62,786 bases of DNA from a virus, in the IMG/VR virus record IMGVR_UViG_3300036975_000025, positions 1 through 62,786 of that record. The stretch is one strand, 5' to 3'. The translations under genes were made by a program, and so were the position numbers. Under the pieces are notes generated by a model that did no database searches, was not told the DNA's origin, and was given only the letters and a program-made list of their open reading frames with translations. Of the stretch, positions 5,709 through 61,142 are shown piece by piece. Position 1 is the first letter of the stretch, and each line of letters begins with the position of its first letter.

Positions 5709-6598
5709 TAGTATTGAATCACCTCGTCAAGCAGAGCCTTTTCAATCTCAGGATCTACAGGGTAGAGGTAGCCGGTAGCCCATCCAATGCTCTTTGCCTG
5801 CGCGCCATTCATCCAGTATTCCTGATCCCTCAATTTCTGGGCAAACGCTTCCTTGGTCATCCCCACCCTTTTTGCAAGCCATGAATTAATCGTGTCCTGG
5901 AAATGATTGAGAAGTTTCGTTTTTTTCTTGCTGTCCGTTGGGGTGGAAATCTCAAAGAATGTGAACGTAGCCAATTCGTGCATCATCAGTTCAACCGTGG
6001 GGGACATAAGCCTTTTATCAGCCGCACAAAAGATGATGAATGCAGCGCTCGCAGCAATAGACCGCACCTGAGTCGTTACGTCAAAGCCCATGGCCTTATA
6101 CTGCTCAATAACTGTAACCACTTTCCATCCACTAAAAATGGACCCGCCAGGTGATTCTATGTCGATAATGATTCGTCGAATGCCGTGCCGAGCAAGATAC
6201 CGGAGTGCATCTTCTAGAAGCACCGGGGTCGCTTCACGAATGCCAATGTTTAAAGTAAAGAATCCGTACTTACCCTGATCGTCTTCATAAACCTTTAGGA
6301 GAGCAGGATAGTCAAATTGGTCGTGGGGATCGGTTTCCTTAATCTTCTTGAAGTCACGGCCTCGACAATGGCACCACAGGCATTTGTCCTGATCGGTCAT
6401 TGTGGTGAACGGACAACGGGCAACGCCTTCGTCTTCAGATTCCTCATCCCCCGAAGAGGCCGAAACTTCTGCCCGTGCTTCCGGTTCCGCCCACACCATG
6501 CTAGGTAAAATGGACAATGACACAATTAGGGCAAGGATAATCGCCAAGATTGGCACACTCCACAAAAGGCTAATGTTGCTATACTTTCGGTATTTCAT
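5708..6598 (-). CDS. Membrane-anchored/secreted S49 (SppA) / ClpP-fold serine peptidase
   Basis: IIIDIESPGGSIFSG...SIAASAAFIIFCAADKR...MMHE are ClpP/S49-type blocks. N-terminus MKYRKYSNISLLWSVPILAIILALIVSLSILPSMVWA/EPE. ATGA-coupled start at 6598 with a GGAAGGGAGAG RBS. Confidence 0.75.
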   Translation of the reverse strand: MKYRKYSNISLLWSVPILAIILALIVSLSILPSMVWAEPEARAEVSASSGDEESEDEGVARCPFTTMTDQDKCLWCHCRGRDFKKIKETDPHDQFDYPALLKVYEDDQGKYGFFTLNIGIREATPVLLEDALRYLARHGIRRIIIDIESPGGSIFSGWKVVTVIEQYKAMGFDVTTQVRSIAASAAFIIFCAADKRLMSPTVELMMHELATFTFFEISTPTDSKKKTKLLNHFQDTINSWLAKRVGMTKEAFAQKLRDQEYWMNGAQAKSIGWATGYLYPVDPEIEKALLDEVIQY

Positions 6599-8312: not shown

Positions 8313-8530
8313 TTTGGCACCTCCTTTTTGATATCTGTGGGTATACCACCTGCACCATTAGGCTTTTCGATGTACTTATCTTGAATGGTGTCGTAAATCA
8401 TCAAATTATTCCATAGAATCACTTGTGGATTGCCATTCTTATAATGTACTTCTTCATACTCTTCCAATGGCCGAAAAAATGCTTCTATGACTGCGTTCTC
8501 TACGGGTATCCATACCCGCTCAGGACCGTT
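8309..8530 (-). other. In-frame open segment downstream of UGA 8531..8533 (candidate recoded extension, 73 codons plus stop)
   Basis: Same frame as 8531..8752. No ATG/GTG with an RBS. Ends in an ATGA overlap with the next gene. Translation NGPERVWIPVENAVIEAFF...DIKKEVPK looks protein-like. Confidence 0.45.
8503..8518 (-). promoter_or_regulatory. Hairpin CGGGUA-UGGA-UACCCG 12 nt downstream of the in-frame UGA (SECIS-like / readthrough-stimulating candidate)
   Basis: Perfect 6-bp stem with a 4-nt G-containing loop, read directly from the sequence. Confidence 0.4.
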
Positions 8531-8752
8531 TCATGTGGGACACCGGACCTTCCCGTTTTTGAATTCCGTTACCAAAGGAGGGCCGGGGGCAGGGGTGCAA
8601 CCACCTTCTGCGTTCAACCGAAACACCATGCCGTTGTACTTCTGCACACAGAAAGTCGTATCGTTGACCGTGATTTTCCCGAATACTCCAGCCGCCCCCA
8701 CCCACGCAGGCAAGATCAGTAGGCAGAGGGCTGTCAGAAATACTCGTTTCAT
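8531..8752 (-). CDS. Small secreted protein (73 aa to the UGA) ending ...RCPT-UGA
   Basis: AGGAGA RBS; signal peptide MKRVFLTALCLLILPAWVGA; the last residues C-P-T precede the TGA. Confidence 0.65.
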   Translation of the reverse strand: MKRVFLTALCLLILPAWVGAAGVFGKITVNDTTFCVQKYNGMVFRLNAEGGCTPAPGPPLVTEFKNGKVRCPT

Positions 8753-8775
8753 GGTGTCTCCTGTAATGACGATGG

Positions 8776-9642
8776 TTACGGGACTTGGGTCGGATCAGCC
8801 GTCCACTGCTTGATCGACAAACCACCTGCACTGTTCCCGGCAGGGTCATACCAAAACCGCTCCCATTCGTAGGGTTTCAGAATAATTATTTTCCCATCCT
8901 CCAGAATGCTGGTCGTGGTGGAAGGCGTGGTACTTCCGTCTGTCGTGTAATTGATATCATCCCCGATGGTCTGAACTTCAATCGCCCTGGCCCCGGCTGC
9001 AACCTCTATAGCCGTGGTGCCGCTCCAAAATTGAGTTACCCCTGTTGTGGCAAAGGCAGAATAGTCTTGGTCTATCAGGAGAGGGGAAGACTCGTAGAAG
9101 TCGCCTTCTTTCCCTGGAAAAATGCGAAACTCCGCATGATCGAAAACGGTTGTACCCGAGGCCGTCACGAACCCGAACCGTACATAGGTATTGGCCGGCA
9201 ACCGGGCCCACTTCGGCCCTGCGGTATTGTTGGTCGTGGCCGTAACCGTCTCATCCTTGTAGAAATAGAACCTCTCGGCATAGGTCCAGGTATCCGGATC
9301 AAGGGAGCACTCTGCGTAGAAATCAAAGTCCTTTGAGATCGTCCCGCCTAAACCTTGCTGGGCCTGAGAGGAATCGAGGTCCATCAACTGCACGCCGTAC
9401 CAGGGTCCGTACTCGTTGGCATTGAAATACTGTGTACCGTCAGCCCGGGTGATGTTGTCGTCGTTGGGGGCATCGAGGTACATGGTCGAGGCGCCGGAGG
9501 CATACGTGGTGTTGCCTGTATCGGTCAATCCTATGTAGGCCGTCATGTACGGGATCTTCCCGAACATCGCCAAGGGGTCGGCGTGCGCGGTTCCCATAAG
9601 GCCGAAGAGCAGAATCAAGGCAAAAACGATTGTCTTTTTCAT
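8776..9642 (-). CDS. Secreted late protein (288 aa)
   Basis: Start at MKKTIVFALILLFGLMGTAHA/DP, an internal Met of the track ORF; beta-rich composition. Confidence 0.6.
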   Translation of the reverse strand: MKKTIVFALILLFGLMGTAHADPLAMFGKIPYMTAYIGLTDTGNTTYASGASTMYLDAPNDDNITRADGTQYFNANEYGPWYGVQLMDLDSSQAQQGLGGTISKDFDFYAECSLDPDTWTYAERFYFYKDETVTATTNNTAGPKWARLPANTYVRFGFVTASGTTVFDHAEFRIFPGKEGDFYESSPLLIDQDYSAFATTGVTQFWSGTTAIEVAAGARAIEVQTIGDDINYTTDGSTTPSTTTSILEDGKIIILKPYEWERFWYDPAGNSAGGLSIKQWTADPTQVP

Positions 9643-25891: not shown

Positions 25892-26619
25892 TTAAGTGGT
25901 CACGCCGGTCTTGGCCTTGTGGCCCTTCCGGTTGTTCACGACCAGGTTCCCGTCAAACAGGATCTTCATGGTCCGGTCGTTCGGAGAGCCGGGAATGACC
26001 ATCCACTTCGTTCGCATGAAGTAGCCCTTCTGGTGGACGGCGAAACCGACATGGTTGGTGTTGAGGGCCAGCAACGTACCGCTGGTGGTTCCGGTCGTCG
26101 GGGCATAGTCGTCGGGGAAGTAATCCGCCCCCTCGAACTCAACGCCCGTGAACCCCACCTTGGCGGTCCTCTCGGACTTCACAAACCGTTGCTGGGTCTG
26201 AAGAATGGAAAGGATCTCGTTGAACAGCCACTCAGGGCTTACCAGGAGATCCGGCTTACCCTTGGCCCCGTCCCTGATCTTCGCGTCGGTCCGAATGTCC
26301 CGAAGCATGTCCAGGGTGATGGAGCCAGCGCCCGTGTCCCGCTTTCCTTCCCACGGGTAGGTGCCGTCCGCAGCCATCAGGTCGCCTTCCTGAATCCCCC
26401 CGTACGCCGTGGTCGTGGTCTCATGGCAGCACGCCATAAGTCCCGTCAGACGCTCGGACAGGCCGGTAGGCTCATCGTAGATGGAGTTGGCAAGTACCTT
26501 GGTGAGGGATTTCTGGGCCCCGCCGACACGCTGCTCGACCAGTTGAACCTCTGCATAGTCGCCAGCGTTCTTCAGGGTGTCGATCCGGTAGATGGTCGCG
26601 TTGCCGTAAGCGTGCTTCC
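25892..26619 (-). CDS. Major capsid protein, exon 2
   Basis: The frame is open for 79 codons upstream of the first ATG (26437) with no ATG/GTG/TTG. It is in phase with exon 1. The joined product is 330 aa and lies after the scaffold gene. Confidence 0.7.
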
Positions 26620-27600
26620 CAGTGCTGTTACCGCAGGGCCATTTAAGCCCTGCTTCTGCATGTCTCCATGCAGCTCAGACTATATCATCACCCTGTTCAC
26701 CTACAGAGTGCCGGGCGCTCGTGGGCAGGATTATTGTTGGGACTCACCCGCCTAGTCGTTGAACCTTCCTCAGAACCTTCGCCCTCTGAGGCTTGGCTGC
26801 TGATTGCCCTCGCCTTTACGTTAGGGGATTCCAGCAATTCACCCGGTTTTTCAGAGTAGTGAATGAATATATGGCAAGACTTGCAAACGGTTATACCGTC
26901 TTCAAGCCGGTGAAGGGCGACAACCATTTCAGCGATCTTTATCTTGTCCTCTGAATTTTCGATAGAAAGCTCAGGGTGGTCAGAAATAACCGCATCCATG
27001 ATGTCTTTGAGTGGCCTCAAATGGTGAACATGGTTATTGCGATAGTGTCCGCAAAGGCGGCAAGTGAAATTATCACGTTCCATTACCGGGAATGTCCAAA
27101 CAGGATAAAGCGCCCTTCGAATCATGTCCGTAAGGGTTGAAATGCCTCCCTGCCAATTGTGATGATTCTCCCCGGACCTATGCTTATTGGAGCAGGTAAT
27201 GCAGCGTTCAGCGTGATAAAACTTATTCAACTTGCATCCGCAATCAATACAATAAGCATCTGGAACATATTTTCGATAAATTCCAAGCCGTTGAGCCTGT
27301 GTTTTAATTGCAGGCTCAGTTCTGTCTAAATGTTCAACCATTTTTGCAAGTGGATATCCTTTGTCAGGATAATGCCGGGCAAGATACCTGTTCTCTGCTT
27401 TGGTCCAAGTAGTATGTGTACCGCAAAGGCCCAGTTGAGTCGCCTTATGCCTGATAGAGTTAACCGACCTCTCCAACTTTTCAGCAATGTCCATAGATAG
27501 ACCACGCCTATAATTGGCTATTAAAAAGTCGATTTCTTCTTTTTTCCACCTGCTAGCCATAGCCATATCTCACTATTCTGGAGCTAATTCATGCTACTTA
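26620..27600 (-). mobile_element. Group I intron (981 nt) with HNH homing-endonuclease ORF, inside the major capsid gene
   Basis: On the minus strand, P-like GAAUUGCUGGAAUCCCC (26824..26840), Q-like GCAAUCAGCAGCC (26795..26807), R-like GGUUCAACGACUAGG (26751..26765) and S-like GAUAUAGUC (26678..26686) occur in the canonical order. P4 (UUGCUG/CAGCAG) and P7 (GACUA/UAGUC) pairings are possible. 7-bp hairpins follow at 26630..26671. Confidence 0.8.
26697..27566 (-). CDS. Intron-encoded HNH homing endonuclease (289 aa)
   Basis: Two SANT/Myb-like repeats (WKKEEIDFL..., WTKAENRYL...), a Cys4 zinc module, and an HNH core CRLCGH..NNHVHHLRPL...CKSCHIFIH. The low-complexity C-terminus overlaps the intron core. 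Confidence 0.85.
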   Translation of the reverse strand: MAMASRWKKEEIDFLIANYRRGLSMDIAEKLERSVNSIRHKATQLGLCGTHTTWTKAENRYLARHYPDKGYPLAKMVEHLDRTEPAIKTQAQRLGIYRKYVPDAYCIDCGCKLNKFYHAERCITCSNKHRSGENHHNWQGGISTLTDMIRRALYPVWTFPVMERDNFTCRLCGHYRNNHVHHLRPLKDIMDAVISDHPELSIENSEDKIKIAEMVVALHRLEDGITVCKSCHIFIHYSEKPGELLESPNVKARAISSQASEGEGSEEGSTTRRVSPNNNPAHERPALCR

Positions 27601-47369: not shown

Positions 47370-48386
47370 ATGAGTCATTTTACTGTGATGGTGATTGGAG
47401 AGGATTGGGAGAGGCAGCTTTTGCCGTACAAGGAGGCCGGATGTGGGGCTGAAGATCCGCCTGAACTTCAAAGTCTCCTTGTTTTCGAAGACGAGGAGGA
47501 GGCGCGACGGCGAGAGTATGAAACCGAGACAATCACAAAGGTCGTGATGGAAGACGGGAGGATGCTGAACCCTTGGGACGATGAATTCAGGGTGAAGGGG
47601 AGCATTGGTATTGGGAGCGACACTCACAAAGTCCCAGACGACCTTGAGCAGCGGGAGGTGCCATACAAGGAGCTGTACACATCCTTTGAGAAGTACATGA
47701 AGGATTGGTGCGGCGAGGAGAGGGACGAGAAGACGGGGAAATACGGGCGCTGGTACAACCCGAACCAGAAGTGGGATTGGTACATGATGGGTGGGCGCTG
47801 GGTTGGTTTTTTCAAAATGAAAAACGGGACCGGCGGAGTGCCTGGGGATCCTTCGTTTATGGTAGACCCCCCGAGGGCTGGCTTTGCCGACCAGGCCAGG
47901 AAGGGCGAAATTGATTTCGAAGGCATGAGGGCGAAGGCCGCGAAAGAGGCCGGGGAGAAGTTCGATAAGGTTCAGCGGGCCTGTGATGGCCAGATCCCGA
48001 AATTGGATTTTTTCTGGGAGGACCTTAACAACCCAAGGTTTCAACATCTCTCCATCCAGGAAAAACGGGAAGCCTATCGGCACCAGGATGGGATGGTGAA
48101 GTGGACAAGTTTTCGGAAAAAGGCCGATGGCAACGATATGTTCTGCTTTCTTGACCTGGAGGAGTTCCAGGAAACGAAGGAGGAATATGTTGAACGGGCC
48201 CGGCTCGACGCCATTGCCACCTTTGCTGTTGTGAAGGATGGGAAATGGTACGAGCGAGGGGATATGGGCTGGTGGGGCATTGTTTCCGACGAGAAAGACC
48301 GAGACACTTGGAGGCGTGAATTCAACGCCCTGATCGATGGGGTTTCCGACGACACGCTTTTGACTGTTGTGGATTGCCATATTTGA
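47370..48386 (+). CDS. Hypothetical early protein (338 aa), WDWYMMGGRW motif
   Basis: AAAGGAGGG RBS before MSHFTVMVIGEDWE. The long antisense ORF opposite it is judged spurious. Confidence 0.65.
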   Translation: MSHFTVMVIGEDWERQLLPYKEAGCGAEDPPELQSLLVFEDEEEARRREYETETITKVVMEDGRMLNPWDDEFRVKGSIGIGSDTHKVPDDLEQREVPYKELYTSFEKYMKDWCGEERDEKTGKYGRWYNPNQKWDWYMMGGRWVGFFKMKNGTGGVPGDPSFMVDPPRAGFADQARKGEIDFEGMRAKAAKEAGEKFDKVQRACDGQIPKLDFFWEDLNNPRFQHLSIQEKREAYRHQDGMVKWTSFRKKADGNDMFCFLDLEEFQETKEEYVERARLDAIATFAVVKDGKWYERGDMGWWGIVSDEKDRDTWRREFNALIDGVSDDTLLTVVDCHI

Positions 48387-48393
48387 AAGTTCT

Positions 48394-48509
48394 GCGGGGG
48401 ATGGCGGAATAAGACGCGAGGGCGGACTGATAAAAAGGCTGCTCTCAGGCTTGGGGATGCTTGCACCCCCTTAATACCTTGCGGGCTCGAATCCCGCTCC
48501 CCCGCACCA
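48394..48509 (+). ncRNA. Atypical tRNA-like gene (116 nt, CCA-encoded, 8-bp acceptor stem)
   Basis: Acceptor GCGGGGGA/UCCCCCGC, discriminator A, CCA. D arm GCG-GAAUAAGA-CGC. T arm GCGGG-CUCGAAU-CCCGC. A 62-nt centre forms two hairpins instead of a canonical anticodon arm plus variable arm. Confidence 0.6.
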
Positions 48510-48523
48510 AACCAGCAACTCCA

Positions 48524-48548
48524 GGGGAGGGGAGCCCCGTTTTGTTCA
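48524..48548 (+). terminator. Weak terminator-like hairpin after the tRNA-like gene
   Basis: GGGG-AGGGGAG-CCCC followed by GUUUUGUU. Confidence 0.3.
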
Positions 48549-48728
48549 GGCCCCGTGCGCGGGGATAGTCGGGTCGGGGGCGGGTTGCTTACAGAATTGT
48601 TAACCAAGCGGCAACGAAGAAAGGCGGTTGAAAACGGGGATGATACGAAGTCTGTTCGAGAGGAAAACACAACGTCATCCTCTCCCTGGTCATGCCGCGC
48701 CAGGGAGGGGCCTAAAAAGGAGGAAGTA

Positions 48729-49172
48729 ATGAAGAAAACAGCTATGATGATTGTTCTGATGATTGGATTAACGGCAATATCAGCAAATGCCAAAGACCGT
48801 CTGTCAGAAGTCCCAGACATTGAAGATGGTTATGTGGTTATCATGTCCCAGTTTTGCGATGAAGACGGGTTTCAGGGATTTCATGAGAAAGTATTTAGAT
48901 GGAAAAGCGAAGCATTGAAATACGTAAAGAAACATTTTGGAACCGATGGGCTTTCAACATCAAAAGGAGACATCGAAGGATTAAATGAAATTTGGTATTG
49001 TGGAAGTGAAGGGGGTTTTTATTTATCAGATAATAGAGCAGTTATAACAGTAAGGGATACTTCTGGCCCTCGTCGCCGCTTAATTGGTGTATTTAAAATC
49101 GGAGATAAACTTAAAATTAAGTGTGAAGTCAAGCCGGTTCAACAATACTCACAGGAAATTTCATTTGAATAA
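48729..49172 (+). CDS. Secreted protein (147 aa)
   Basis: AAAGGAGGAAG RBS; signal peptide MKKTAMMIVLMIGLTAISANA/KD. Confidence 0.6.
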   Translation: MKKTAMMIVLMIGLTAISANAKDRLSEVPDIEDGYVVIMSQFCDEDGFQGFHEKVFRWKSEALKYVKKHFGTDGLSTSKGDIEGLNEIWYCGSEGGFYLSDNRAVITVRDTSGPRRRLIGVFKIGDKLKIKCEVKPVQQYSQEISFE

Positions 49173-59866: not shown

Positions 59867-60973
59867 ATGAAGGGGGGAATCTACGAGAACAAGGGAAAGT
59901 ATGGGGCAAGGTGGATCGTCCGGTATCCAGGGGGAATCTGGCGGCGCTTTAAGGTCTATGAGGATGCAGAATCCTTCCTCATCGCCTTGAACTACCGGGA
60001 CCAAGTAGAGGGTGGAGTGGACCCAAGGGACTACCGGAAGGACGTGCCACTCGGGTTCATGACGTTGGCAGACCAATGGCTTGATGTGAAAAGATCGGAA
60101 GGCCTGCGGTCTCTGAAAAATCCTATCAACCACATCCAACACGCCGCGCGGTTTTTGGGAAACCGGAACGTCAAGGACATTAGGTACGGTGAACTGGAAG
60201 ACCTCTTGAAGCACTTGAGGCAGACCACGGACCTCTCGGGGAAGTCCCTGCACGACATTTTCACCACGCTCCACACGTTTTTTAAGTGGGTATCCAGGCG
60301 GGAAAAGAAGTTTGAAATGCCCGACTTCCCCACCATTAAGTACGAGTTGAAATACAGGCAGACCGTGGACTTTGAAACACGGGCCAAAATCCTCGAGGAA
60401 GTGCGCCGGCTCTCATGGAAGGAAAATCCCAAAATCTATCTAGGCATCCTGTGGCTCTCTACCTATCCCATCGTGCGACCCATCGAGCTCTTGCAGGTCT
60501 TGGAACGGGACATCGACCTTTCCAATGGGACCATCACCATTACGCGAAGCAAGGTCAGGGGACAGTACAAACGAATTTACCTTATCGAGGAAGACGTGGA
60601 CACCATCCGGACCCTCCCCCGCGGTATGCCGTTGATGCCGTTCTTCCGGCATGAGAAGAAGAAAGGACAACCCGCGGGGAAGCAATTTGGCAAAGACTAT
60701 TGGTATTCATGGTGGAGGAAGGCTTGCAGGAACCTCAGCATCAAGGGCGTGAGCCTCTATCCCGGCACCAGGCATTCGACAGTCACGGGGCTGGGGGATG
60801 AACTGAGCCCTGAAGAGATCATGGCGGGAGCATCGGACCATCGGACCAACAAAGCCTTTGCCCGGTACTTCCACTTGAAGGCAGAGCGCAGGAGGGCTAT
60901 TTCGAGGCACATTCGGCTCAAGCAAACCTGCACATCATCTGCAACGGCAAATGGAGCAGGTGAAGAGGATTAA
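59867..60973 (+). CDS. int: Tyrosine integrase
   Basis: AAAAGGAG RBS before MKGGIYENKGKYGARW. Core-binding and catalytic domains are present, with R (RPIELL), PGTRHSTVT, and ASDHRTNKAFARYFH (H..Y). Confidence 0.9.
   Translation: MKGGIYENKGKYGARWIVRYPGGIWRRFKVYEDAESFLIALNYRDQVEGGVDPRDYRKDVPLGFMTLADQWLDVKRSEGLRSLKNPINHIQHAARFLGNRNVKDIRYGELEDLLKHLRQTTDLSGKSLHDIFTTLHTFFKWVSRREKKFEMPDFPTIKYELKYRQTVDFETRAKILEEVRRLSWKENPKIYLGILWLSTYPIVRPIELLQVLERDIDLSNGTITITRSKVRGQYKRIYLIEEDVDTIRTLPRGMPLMPFFRHEKKKGQPAGKQFGKDYWYSWWRKACRNLSIKGVSLYPGTRHSTVTGLGDELSPEEIMAGASDHRTNKAFARYFHLKAERRRAISRHIRLKQTCTSSATANGAGEED
60927..60943 (+). repeat. Arm-type direct repeat CCTGCACATCATCTGCA (left of the core)
   Basis: 16/17 identical to 61057..61073; together they flank the tRNA-like core. 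Confidence 0.55.
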
Positions 60974-60996
60974 GGATGCGGAAATTGCTGAAAATC

Positions 60997-61028
60997 TGGT
61001 GCCGAAGGGGAGACTCGAACTCCCCGAC
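60997..61028 (-). other. attP core candidate: 3' end of a tRNA (T arm + acceptor + CCA), tRNA-Leu-like
   Basis: The minus strand reads GUCGGGGAGUUCGAGUCUCCCCUUCGGCACCA. No matching 5' acceptor half (GCCGAAG) lies within 100 nt, so this is a fragment and not a gene. Confidence 0.7.
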
Positions 61029-61056
61029 TAGCCTGATTTTCCTGCAAAAAATCCAT

Positions 61057-61073
61057 CCTGCACACCATCTGCA
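61057..61073 (+). repeat. Arm-type direct repeat CCTGCACACCATCTGCA (right of the core)
   Basis: Partner of 60927..60943. Confidence 0.55.
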
Positions 61074-61142
61074 CATCCTTCTCAATTTTTCAGCTTGGAG
61101 ACAGTCTGGAGGCAACCGAGGCTGTCAAGGAAAGGAGAGATC

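Follow-up and report, generated by a model that had tools for sequence, protein, structure and literature searches.

Non-decoding RNAs that resemble transfer RNA (tRNA), such as transfer-messenger RNA (tmRNA), Y RNAs and the tRNA-like structures (TLSs) of viruses, have each revealed new biology. A conserved G3-U70 pair is the alanine determinant of tmRNA, in which a tRNA-like domain is joined to a tag-peptide reading frame and pseudoknots, and the 5' and 3' ends of the Y RNA YrlA form a Ro-binding stem, not an acceptor helix. In phages P1 and P7, C4 is a regulatory antisense RNA released by RNase P, and in engineered tRNA scaffolds a functional RNA is inserted into a tRNA-like frame that confers processing and stability on it. 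To our knowledge, no function has been established for the stable RNAs of phage T4 known as species 1 and 2 (rnaC and rnaD). YrlA RNAs are non-decoding bacterial Y RNAs, also present in phages, in which a tRNA-like module accompanies a Ro/Rsr-binding module (PMC4201824). Allo-tRNAs have a 12-bp acceptor/T branch, built as 8/4 or 9/3, together with an anticodon arm (PMC5389517). Here, a tRNA-like element of 116 nt is described from the plus strand (positions 48394-48509) of IMG/VR virus record IMGVR_UViG_3300036975_000025, the whole 62,786 nt of which are referred to below as the window. We are confident that this element is a real structured RNA gene of an anticodon-less family derived from tRNA-Leu, and equally that it is neither a pseudogene nor an allo-tRNA, a selenocysteine tRNA (tRNA-Sec) or a tRNA with an intron. 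The family falls within the known class of non-decoding tRNA-like RNAs.

The structural parts of the element, re-read from the sequence, are listed here with the evidence for each (MFE, minimum free energy; R1, a covariance model described below).

48394-48401, plus strand: 5' strand of the closing (acceptor-like) helix, GCGGGGGA (sequence, MFE fold, R1 alignment over 48393-48506)
48402-48417, plus strand: U8-G9 and D arm, TGGCGGAATAAGACGC, a 16-mer that recurs identically in 108 viral-contig loci
48418-48446, plus strand: central hairpin 1, an 8-bp stem GAGGGCGG/CUGCUCUC with a 13-nt loop ACUGAUAAAAAGG (sequence, MFE fold)
48447-48480, plus strand: central domain 2, with AGG/CCU closing pairs around the hairpin 48453-48469, then U48480 (sequence, MFE fold)
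48481-48497, plus strand: T arm, GCGGG-CUCGAAU-CCCGC, abutting the 3' strand of the closing helix with 0 nt between (sequence, MFE fold, R1)
48498-48505, plus strand: 3' strand of the closing helix, UCCCCCGC (sequence, MFE fold, R1)
48506-48509, plus strand: encoded ACCA, a discriminator-like A and CCA (sequence)

The acceptor helix GCGGGGGA/UCCCCCGC is a perfect helix of 8 bp with ACCA directly after it, and in the register of the family it consists of 7 bp (48395-48401) and the extra pairs G48394-C48505 and U48393-A48506. The D arm has the layout UG-GCG-GAAUAAGA-CGC, that is, a 3-bp stem GCG/CGC and an 8-nt loop GAAUAAGA without G18G19, and the T loop CUCGAAU retains U55 and C56, the bases with which G18G19 pair in a canonical tRNA. 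A preliminary description of this DNA had recognized the 8-bp helix with its discriminator A and encoded CCA, a type-II-style D arm and the T arm, all of which are borne out by the sequence; its count of 62 nt between the D and T arms is corrected to 63 nt (48418-48480). In this interval, hairpin 1 (stem strands 48418-48425 and 48439-48446) takes the place of the anticodon arm, and domain 2, the hairpin of which reads GGGG-A-UG CUUG CA-CCCC with a CUUG tetraloop, takes that of the variable arm. Domain 2 has a parallel in the family, where the last helix of the centre likewise stops 1-2 nt short of the T stem. The 8-bp stem with its 13-nt loop and the second hairpin had both been drawn earlier, and both were reproduced by the unconstrained MFE fold, which gave the same architecture for the whole element (-52.9 kcal/mol, z = -3.06, equalled by 1 of 200 shuffles). 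An alternative 5-bp stem AGGCU/GGCUU with the loop GCUCUCA is also present in the sequence, as had been stated. Neither the sequence nor the fold allows an anticodon arm to be drawn with a 5-bp stem, a 7-nt loop and standard spacing to the D and T arms, in agreement with the earlier judgement that none could be formed, and the UCA at 48445-48447 sits inside or next to a stem, not in a 7-nt loop. The repeat of GGCGGA exists, but the internal duplication hinted at earlier does not follow, about 1.5 repeated hexamer pairs being expected by chance in 116 nt.

A search of viral contigs with the D-arm 16-mer TGGCGGAATAAGACGC led to 108 loci. In the usual arrangement, the 7 nt on the 5' side of the 16-mer can pair with another 7 nt found 60-300 nt farther downstream, and the downstream helix strand is directly preceded by a perfect hairpin, typically GCAAGA-UGAAAUU-UCUUGC. 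A strict test, in which the flanking bases had to form a perfect 7-bp helix with an abutting T-type hairpin, was passed by 67 of the 108 16-mer sites and, when positions were drawn at random from these loci, by 78 of 21,600 (0.36%); this control is the non-circular test, as the percentage paired in the 61-sequence alignment described below is partly circular, pairing having been used in picking sequences. The family comprises at least 80 distinct elements from uncultivated phages and prophage-like contigs of several bacterial phyla, and its statistics were taken over 78 distinct elements. The same architecture was found in contigs of genomes and metagenome-assembled genomes (MAGs) of Clostridia/Oscillospiraceae, Bacteroidota, Elusimicrobium, Mailhella and Patescibacteria, and the hosts of the family phages range over Clostridia, Bacteroidota, Elusimicrobiota, Desulfovibrionales-type bacteria and Patescibacteria. 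In the genome collection most 16-mer matches are due to chance (about 277 expected in 596 Gb), and about 18 of the 120 that were returned have the architecture.

Support for the fold was obtained from covariation. In an alignment of the conserved parts of 61 sequences, changes on both sides affected every pair of the D stem (3 of 3) and of the T stem (6 of 6) and all but one of the closing helix (6 of 7), with a covariation score of 0.816 vs 0.217 for shuffles; an eighth closing-helix pair is present in 51 and a ninth in 41 of these sequences. A scan based on the T arm, and independent of the D arm, regained 16 known loci and added new members, whose D stems are compensated (UCG/CGA, UUG/CAA, GCU/AGC; changes of this kind were seen in L234, L237, L247 and L238) with the loop GAAUAAGA unaltered. 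Among phages of several phyla there is hardly any variation in the D loop GAAUAAGA, the T loop UGNAAUU, U8/G9 or the G-C pair that adjoins U8. The conserved body of the family consists of the closing helix with G/A7, U8 and G9, the 3-bp D stem, a junction of the YGU type and the T hairpin, which stacks on that helix. Where a tRNA has its anticodon and variable arms, each lineage carries its own structured insert of 21-250 nt. These data show that the portion of a class-II tRNA seen by tRNA-handling enzymes is retained in the family. The features of the family and of the window copy compare as follows.

Pair next to U8: G-C in 75 of 78 family members; A-U in the window copy
Additional pairs extending the 7-bp helix: one or more in 64 of 78; two in the window copy
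T stem: 6 bp in 59 of 78; 5 bp in the window copy
T loop: UGAAAUU in 42 of 78, other UGNAAUU variants being common; CUCGAAU in the window copy
Last 3 nt of the centre: CGU in 41 of 78; CUU in the window copy
Length of the centre: 21-250 nt in the family; 63 nt in the window copy
Base after the 7-bp helix: A in 46% of the family
NCCA after the helix: 6 of 78 vs about 1.2 expected; ACCA in the window copy

The membership of the window element was assessed with R1, a covariance model of 124 positions built from 50 other full-length members, the window element being excluded. R1 matched the window at 48393-48506 over model positions 1-124 of 124 with 37.9 bits (E = 4.2e-9), and it found no other significant match in the 62.8 kb, the next best reaching 9.2 bits (E 1.1); held-out members mostly scored 43-72 bits. 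The window copy thus combines the exact 16-mer D arm, a helix of at least 7 bp with an abutting T hairpin and a significant R1 score, and departs from the majority type in the pair next to U8, the T stem, the T loop and the CGU. Its canonical-type T loop is a minority form that it has in common with L021, L073 and L229. ACCA after the 7-bp helix occurs in only 4 of the 78 members (L031, L044, L086, L123), and their 7/6 stack has the same total of 13 bp as the 8/5 stack of the window copy. On these grounds the window copy can be regarded as a clear but atypical, more tRNA-like member of the family. A side finding at one of the loci mentioned is a DUF3800-VIII RNA (Rfam RF03075, 44.7 bits) at L073 4303-4368 on the minus strand, directly 3' of the element of L073; it is a single case.

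The family is absent from Rfam 15, and a typical member found no match in isolated phage genomes (INPHARED). In the searchable literature, no paper was found that contains the motif sequence or describes such a family; a 2023 catalogue of about 10,000 candidate phage RNAs, which mentions unnamed 'tRNA-like' candidates, could overlap with it (PMC10690425).

Standard detectors do not recognize the element as a tRNA. ARAGORN made no call on it at default settings, nor with introns allowed at the default threshold, and the sole gene it listed in the window is a tRNA-Cys at 60998-61074 on the minus strand. Across the family, none of 79 elements and none of 229 sites with the D-arm 16-mer was called a tRNA. 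At gathering thresholds, Rfam 15 left the element unmatched and found only a group I intron in the window; at E<=10, the canonical tRNA model RF00005 had no match in the region 48300-48800, and the only match from the tRNA clan was tRNA-Sec RF01852 (15.5 bits, E = 3.1, gathering score 47), the alignment of which skips the true 5' end of the element. The 16 family loci scanned with Rfam, at gathering thresholds and at E<=10, were assigned to no family. When introns were allowed and the threshold was lowered, ARAGORN read the window element as tRNA-Cys(gca) with a 38-nt intron, i(31,38). The same relaxed settings, however, called 108 of 300 versions of the window element with shuffled centres (36%), and across the family 3 of 81 real elements vs 2-3 of 81 centre-shuffled ones. 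Because shuffled centres give the same rate, the relaxed call carries no information, and the intron-containing tRNA-Cys was rejected.

Other described RNAs were rejected in turn. The architecture of tRNA-Sec or of allo-tRNAs had been suggested for the element, and the 8+5 helix with a long extra structure does agree with that of bacterial tRNA-Sec, but the D arm, the discriminator, the anticodon and the Rfam score do not. For tRNA-Sec, a D arm of 6 bp and 4 nt would be expected, against 3 bp and an 8-nt loop here; A stands at the discriminator position, no 7-nt loop presents UCA, and the 15.5 bits fall far below 47. For an allo-tRNA, the stack is 8/5 (13 bp) vs 8/4 or 9/3, and an anticodon arm is missing. 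The proposed tmRNA check was negative: ARAGORN found no tmRNA in tmRNA mode on the region or in the run on the whole window, and Rfam found none. YrlA and other Y RNAs had no Rfam match, and no TROVE/Ro-type protein was seen among about 28 window proteins in a scan that was not exhaustive. In the preliminary description the element had also been connected, as conjecture, with an in-frame UGA at 8531. A brief look at that place (window about 8520-8850) showed several overlapping small open reading frames (ORFs) on both strands ending or starting there; a minus-strand frame translated from 8849 meets more stops soon after the first, and nothing ties the 8531 UGA to the element.

The D arm points to the origin of the family. 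A genuine tRNA-Leu in L122 reads TGGCGGAAT[TGG]TAGACGC, and the family 16-mer differs from it only by the missing UGG (G18G19); the 16-mer thus reads as the universal bacterial tRNA-Leu D arm minus its UGG segment. G next to U8 and a CGU junction before the T stem are features that, from E. coli and B. subtilis sequences, we take to belong to tRNA-Leu. Candidate intermediates were also found. L169, a contig of an Agriterribacter sp. MAG (Bacteroidota), carries a one-strand tandem array on the minus strand (about 5770-6500 in reverse-complement coordinates), in the order of two elements with a GG D loop, a canonical T loop and non-tRNA centres (106 and 47 nt), a tRNA-Met and a 16-mer element with an imperfect closing helix. 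The GG-keeping elements of L169 and L221, with their scrambled centres, look like intermediates between tRNA-Leu and the family. Second, divergent copies occur in L086 (4334-4491, plus strand), L146 (2704-2953, minus strand), L020 (8784-8925, minus strand) and L221. In L086 and L221 both copies share one closing helix and the second copies have other D and T loops; the second copy of L146 has a hairpin inserted in its D loop, and that of L020 ends in ACCA. In general, the types of D and T loop tend to change together, GG D loops being found with T loops of the UUCG/UUCA type and GG-less ones mostly with UGNAAUU.

The centres of the elements have been compared in several ways. They are conserved within sublineages despite differing closing helices (L037/L063, L048/L139), and in the centre of a Clostridia sublineage compensatory changes were seen in a GNRA hairpin and in a long-range GGUUGG/CCAACC helix. 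The centre is therefore probably a selected module and not filler. In two members, the centre holds a hairpin like a canonical T arm, namely CUGG-UUCGAAU-CCAG in L097, where it is flanked by a helix, and GUGG-UUCAAAU-CCAC in L113; these would amount to a tRNA-like minihelix nested in a tRNA-like element. For the window copy, no homologue of hairpin 1 was found in viral contigs, in relatives of the upstream protein or in a metagenome scan, and its centre had no significant match to the rest of the window. A cis-antisense action like that of C4 was rejected, the longest complementarity of centres to the 1.5 kb on either side being equal to the cross-locus null. Several neighbours are of the tRNA kind: for 17 of 79 elements, a bona fide tRNA gene lies no more than 1 kb away, nearly always on the same strand, and several elements begin 8-30 nt past the end of one. 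Certain members, such as L028 (TTGACA-17-TATACT) and L042, have a good sigma-70-type promoter of their own. The occurrence of G-U pairs, and an orientation shared with genes and tRNAs, point to an RNA on this strand. No conserved protein partner emerged from all-against-all BLAST of the neighbours or from PHROG scans of the nearest upstream and downstream ORFs. As single cases, RtcB is a neighbour in L146 and a DUF2828/phrog_850 'RNA-binding protein' in L153.

The window is the genome of a lambda-like temperate phage with structural genes on the minus strand. Its early region lies on the plus strand from about 46 kb and contains a helix-turn-helix regulator, a phrog_10079 protein, Erf, a YqaJ exonuclease and a NinB-like protein; DnaB and an O-like initiator are nearby on the minus strand. 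The element is flanked by two genes.

47370-48386, plus strand: upstream gene, phrog_10079 (function unknown), 338-aa form, with its stop 7 nt before the element
48729-49172, plus strand: downstream gene of 147 aa without a family match (ORF, protein scans)

Because no promoter or terminator consensus was found between the co-oriented genes (within 47900-49000), the element probably sits inside a polycistronic early transcript. The phrog_10079 gene is context only and is not linked to the RNA family, as relatives of its protein in L001-L004 carry no such element. Only one public contig (62,689 bp) carries the upstream protein, the next relatives being about 52% identical, and INPHARED holds no close relative of the phage. 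Between the element and the downstream gene, a 12-bp hairpin CCUCUCCCUGGU...GCCAGGGAGGGG lies at 48675-48708 on the plus strand, just 5' of AAGGAGG, the ribosome-binding site for the gene that begins at 48729. Taken as a whole, the 220-nt spacer downstream of the element is not unusually structured (z = 0.34) and has a weak, non-significant Rfam match to the L31 leader.

Other features of the window were noted in passing. The group I intron (Rfam RF00028, 93.8 bits, E = 7e-23) at 26656-26907 on the minus strand is located in or between two minus-strand ORFs of the structural/late region, 25892-26437 and 26697-27566, and a phage gene is probably split there by this self-splicing intron. A tyrosine-type integrase (59798-60973, plus strand) adjoins the tRNA-Cys(GCA) gene (60998-61074, minus strand), and the interval 59798-61074 probably represents either a temperate phage's attachment-site region or the end of a prophage. 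A 210-aa protein (54698-55330, plus strand) has a match to a PHROG tRNA methyltransferase (phrog_4752, E = 1.2e-5) that is too weak to interpret.

What such an RNA might do can be considered from the conserved body and the variable centre. The reading that we tentatively favour, at a little under even chances, is that of a non-decoding chassis derived from tRNA-Leu, which would allow excision from an early transcript, confer stability and carry a lineage-specific central module. Host tRNA-processing enzymes would cut the RNA from the early polycistronic transcript by way of the tRNA-like chassis, with RNase P acting at the 5' end and trimming or CCA maintenance at the 3' end, which already has its encoded ACCA; the RNA would afterwards owe a tRNA-like stability to the chassis, and the two central hairpins would be its effector module. 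Such an RNA would be a natural counterpart of the engineered 'tRNA scaffold' RNAs and of the modular tRNA-like RNAs tmRNA and YrlA. Processing of the tRNA kind is supported by the tRNAs nearby on the same strand, the tandem array of L169 and the enrichment of NCCA. Several points weigh against the chassis reading. The window copy is off consensus (A-U next to U8, CUCGAAU, a 5-bp T stem, CUU) and scores at the low end; no close relative of it was found with an exact T-arm/acceptor pattern in viral contigs, among relatives of the upstream protein or in the metagenome scan, and its central hairpins are a thermodynamic prediction. No target was found for the central module, the complementarity of the centre to its flanks being at the null level, and no motif common to the centres was found beyond the 3' junction, 72 of 80 centres being sequence singletons. 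In the family, the closing helix is mostly 8-9 bp long or longer, and the majority of elements have no encoded CCA, even at loci whose nearby genuine tRNAs do have one; a free NCCA end therefore characterizes a subset, the window copy among them, and is not general to the family. The expression of the chassis and the positions of its ends are predictions from sequence, and the conserved non-canonical D and T loops suggest a specific partner, for which a pure chassis offers no explanation. The loops GAAUAAGA and UGNAAUU are both consistent with the five-base T-loop pattern U-N-N-R-A, which makes a specialised elbow, or a double T-loop, conceivable. The preliminary description had listed, among its alternatives, a tRNA mimic with another role, and this is the one that the comparative data favour. 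As a rival to the chassis, the RNA could be a decoy, sponge or inhibitor, in which the conserved tRNA-like core itself occupies a conserved host factor whose binding to the acceptor/T/D body of tRNA does not involve the anticodon, such as a tRNA-targeting defence nuclease, an acceptor-end-modifying toxin, RNase P, the CCA-adding enzyme or leucyl-tRNA synthetase (LeuRS), the centre merely avoiding being an anticodon arm. We regard such a decoy as possible, though rather unlikely. It would account for the near-invariance across phyla of both loops, of the G-C pair next to U8 and of U8/G9, for loop types that change together, and for paralogues of one phage that keep their closing helix (L086, L221); the lack of a conserved phage protein neighbour would point to a universal host partner, and bacterial LeuRS is established to ignore the anticodon. 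A pure decoy, however, needs neither structured centres nor their conservation in sublineages, G18G19 are deleted although they are important for recognition by E. coli LeuRS, and A follows the helix in fewer than half of the members; a link to defence systems would be hypothetical. A bolder proposal, which we hold to be rather unlikely, is that in phages of many phyla a previously unrecognized class of modular RNAs, with an anticodon-less tRNA-Leu body as its base, may engage a universal host tRNA-handling machine through the D/T-loop corner and the helix, with a swappable centre that carries the activity, e.g. neutralising tRNA-targeting immunity or redirecting a tRNA-binding enzyme, and the window copy with its ACCA might still be CCA-repairable or chargeable.

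The remaining explanations are considered much less probable than the chassis reading. The element could be a cis-acting processing signal ('tRNA punctuation'), the fold of which recruits RNase P or RNase Z to cut the early mRNA between genes, with an excised RNA that has no function. Its start 7 nt after the upstream stop codon, the lack of promoter and terminator consensus within 47900-49000 and a conserved portion confined to the half of tRNA recognized by RNase P would all agree with this, but an ordinary tRNA would do the same job, some members have a promoter placed to start transcription at the element (L028, L042), multiple tandem copies exist in some phages, and the specialised loops and sublineage-conserved centres would be unexplained; we consider this explanation improbable. 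Slightly less can be said for a decaying tRNA-Leu pseudogene, or a functionless remnant at the DNA level such as an attP-type tRNA fragment, which appears very unlikely. The D arm is clearly derived from tRNA-Leu, and the window element scores low within the family and has no close relatives that would show conservation. Against decay, all of its helices are perfect, the fold beats 199 of 200 shuffles, and the 16-mer is identical to the consensus of a strongly covarying family; the G-U pairs and the co-orientation with genes and tRNAs speak for RNA, and the integrase with its likely tRNA-type attachment site lies 11 kb away (59798-61074). The decayed tRNA-Leu entertained in the preliminary description does not stand for the same reasons, its odd D arm being an invariant hallmark of a family under purifying selection; a plain pseudogene by covariance models, named there as a refuting outcome, is contradicted by the perfect helices and the 37.9 bits from R1, and an assembly error in 48403..48438 by the recurrence of the same 16-mer in more than 80 independent elements. 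A decoding tRNA with an unusual or intron-containing anticodon arm, whether Leu(UAA), Ile(GAU) as suggested in the preliminary description, Cys(GCA) minus a 38-nt insert, or a UGA/Sec suppressor, seems hardly credible. Its attractions are the perfect acceptor helix, the ACCA, the canonical-type T loop, the relaxed intron-allowing call of tRNA-Cys(gca), and a UAA at the exact middle of the 13-nt loop, with C-G and U-A pairs available to close GAUAAAA as a 7-nt loop. The relaxed call is nevertheless matched by shuffled centres, both for the window element and across the family, and the Cys reading requires C37 and an intron between positions 32 and 33, for which no bacterial splicing mechanism is known. 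The Leu reading requires an anticodon stem of about 11 bp and A33, the features of tRNA-Sec are unmet, the G18G19 elbow contacts are missing, and the family members are passed over by ARAGORN.

The window element is the entry point to a family that is missed by both the standard tRNA finders and Rfam 15, and which combines strong covariation, a clear origin from tRNA-Leu and an invariant scaffold vs a hypervariable centre. The family model is directly usable for annotating such genes. Should the RNA be a natural chassis, or a decoy for tRNA-directed defence, this would bear on the reasons why phages carry tRNA-like genes, and it could provide a natural template for RNA-scaffold engineering.

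Compared with the known systems, bacterial tRNA-Sec has an 8-bp acceptor helix and a 5-bp T stem in the same 8/5 arrangement, and a long structure between the anticodon region and the T arm; it differs from the window element in its D arm (6 bp/4 nt vs 3 bp/8 nt), in G73 vs A73 and in the UCA, the element having neither this nor any other anticodon in a 7-nt loop. Allo-tRNAs share the 8-bp acceptor helix and differ in the length of the stack, which is 8/5 (13 bp) in the element, and in having an anticodon arm. The T4 species 1 and 2 RNAs resemble the element as stable phage RNAs of about 120-140 nt in a tRNA cluster, one of which ends in ACCA and one of which has a canonical T arm. They show no sequence relationship and were rejected as homologues, the setting being analogous only; the D-arm 16-mer is absent and R1 finds nothing on the T4 locus (L233). 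With the engineered tRNA scaffolds and C4, the element shares the idea of a tRNA-like frame around a functional RNA. Unlike C4, its insert is not complementary to its neighbours and the Rfam C4 family is unmatched, and cleavage of the element by RNase P is a supposition.

Among the modular RNAs, YrlA is similar in joining a tRNA-like module to a second module, and RtcB (L146) and DUF2828/phrog_850 (L153) each stand beside one family locus. In contrast to the layout of YrlA, the ends of the element form an acceptor-like helix; Rfam gives no match, and the RtcB and DUF2828 neighbours are single cases. In tmRNA, as in the element, the paired ends form an acceptor helix, a T arm is present, the D region is reduced and a large structured body replaces the anticodon arm. 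The element differs in its much smaller size, in a D arm of the tRNA-Leu type, in lacking a tag reading frame and in belonging to a family whose closing helices vary freely, so that G3-U70 is not a family feature. From bacterial class-II tRNA-Leu, the element is set apart by the lack of the 5-bp anticodon stem with its 7-nt loop and of G18G19, by a stack of 13 bp (8/5 in the window copy, 7/6 or longer in the family) vs 12, and by a centre of 63 nt in the window copy and 21-250 nt in the family. It is like tRNA-Leu in G/A7 next to U8 and G9, in the D stem GCG/CGC with G13 facing A22, in A14, A15 and A21, in the pyrimidine-G-U junction before the T stem, in the T arm stacked on the acceptor and, for the window copy, in A73 followed by CCA.

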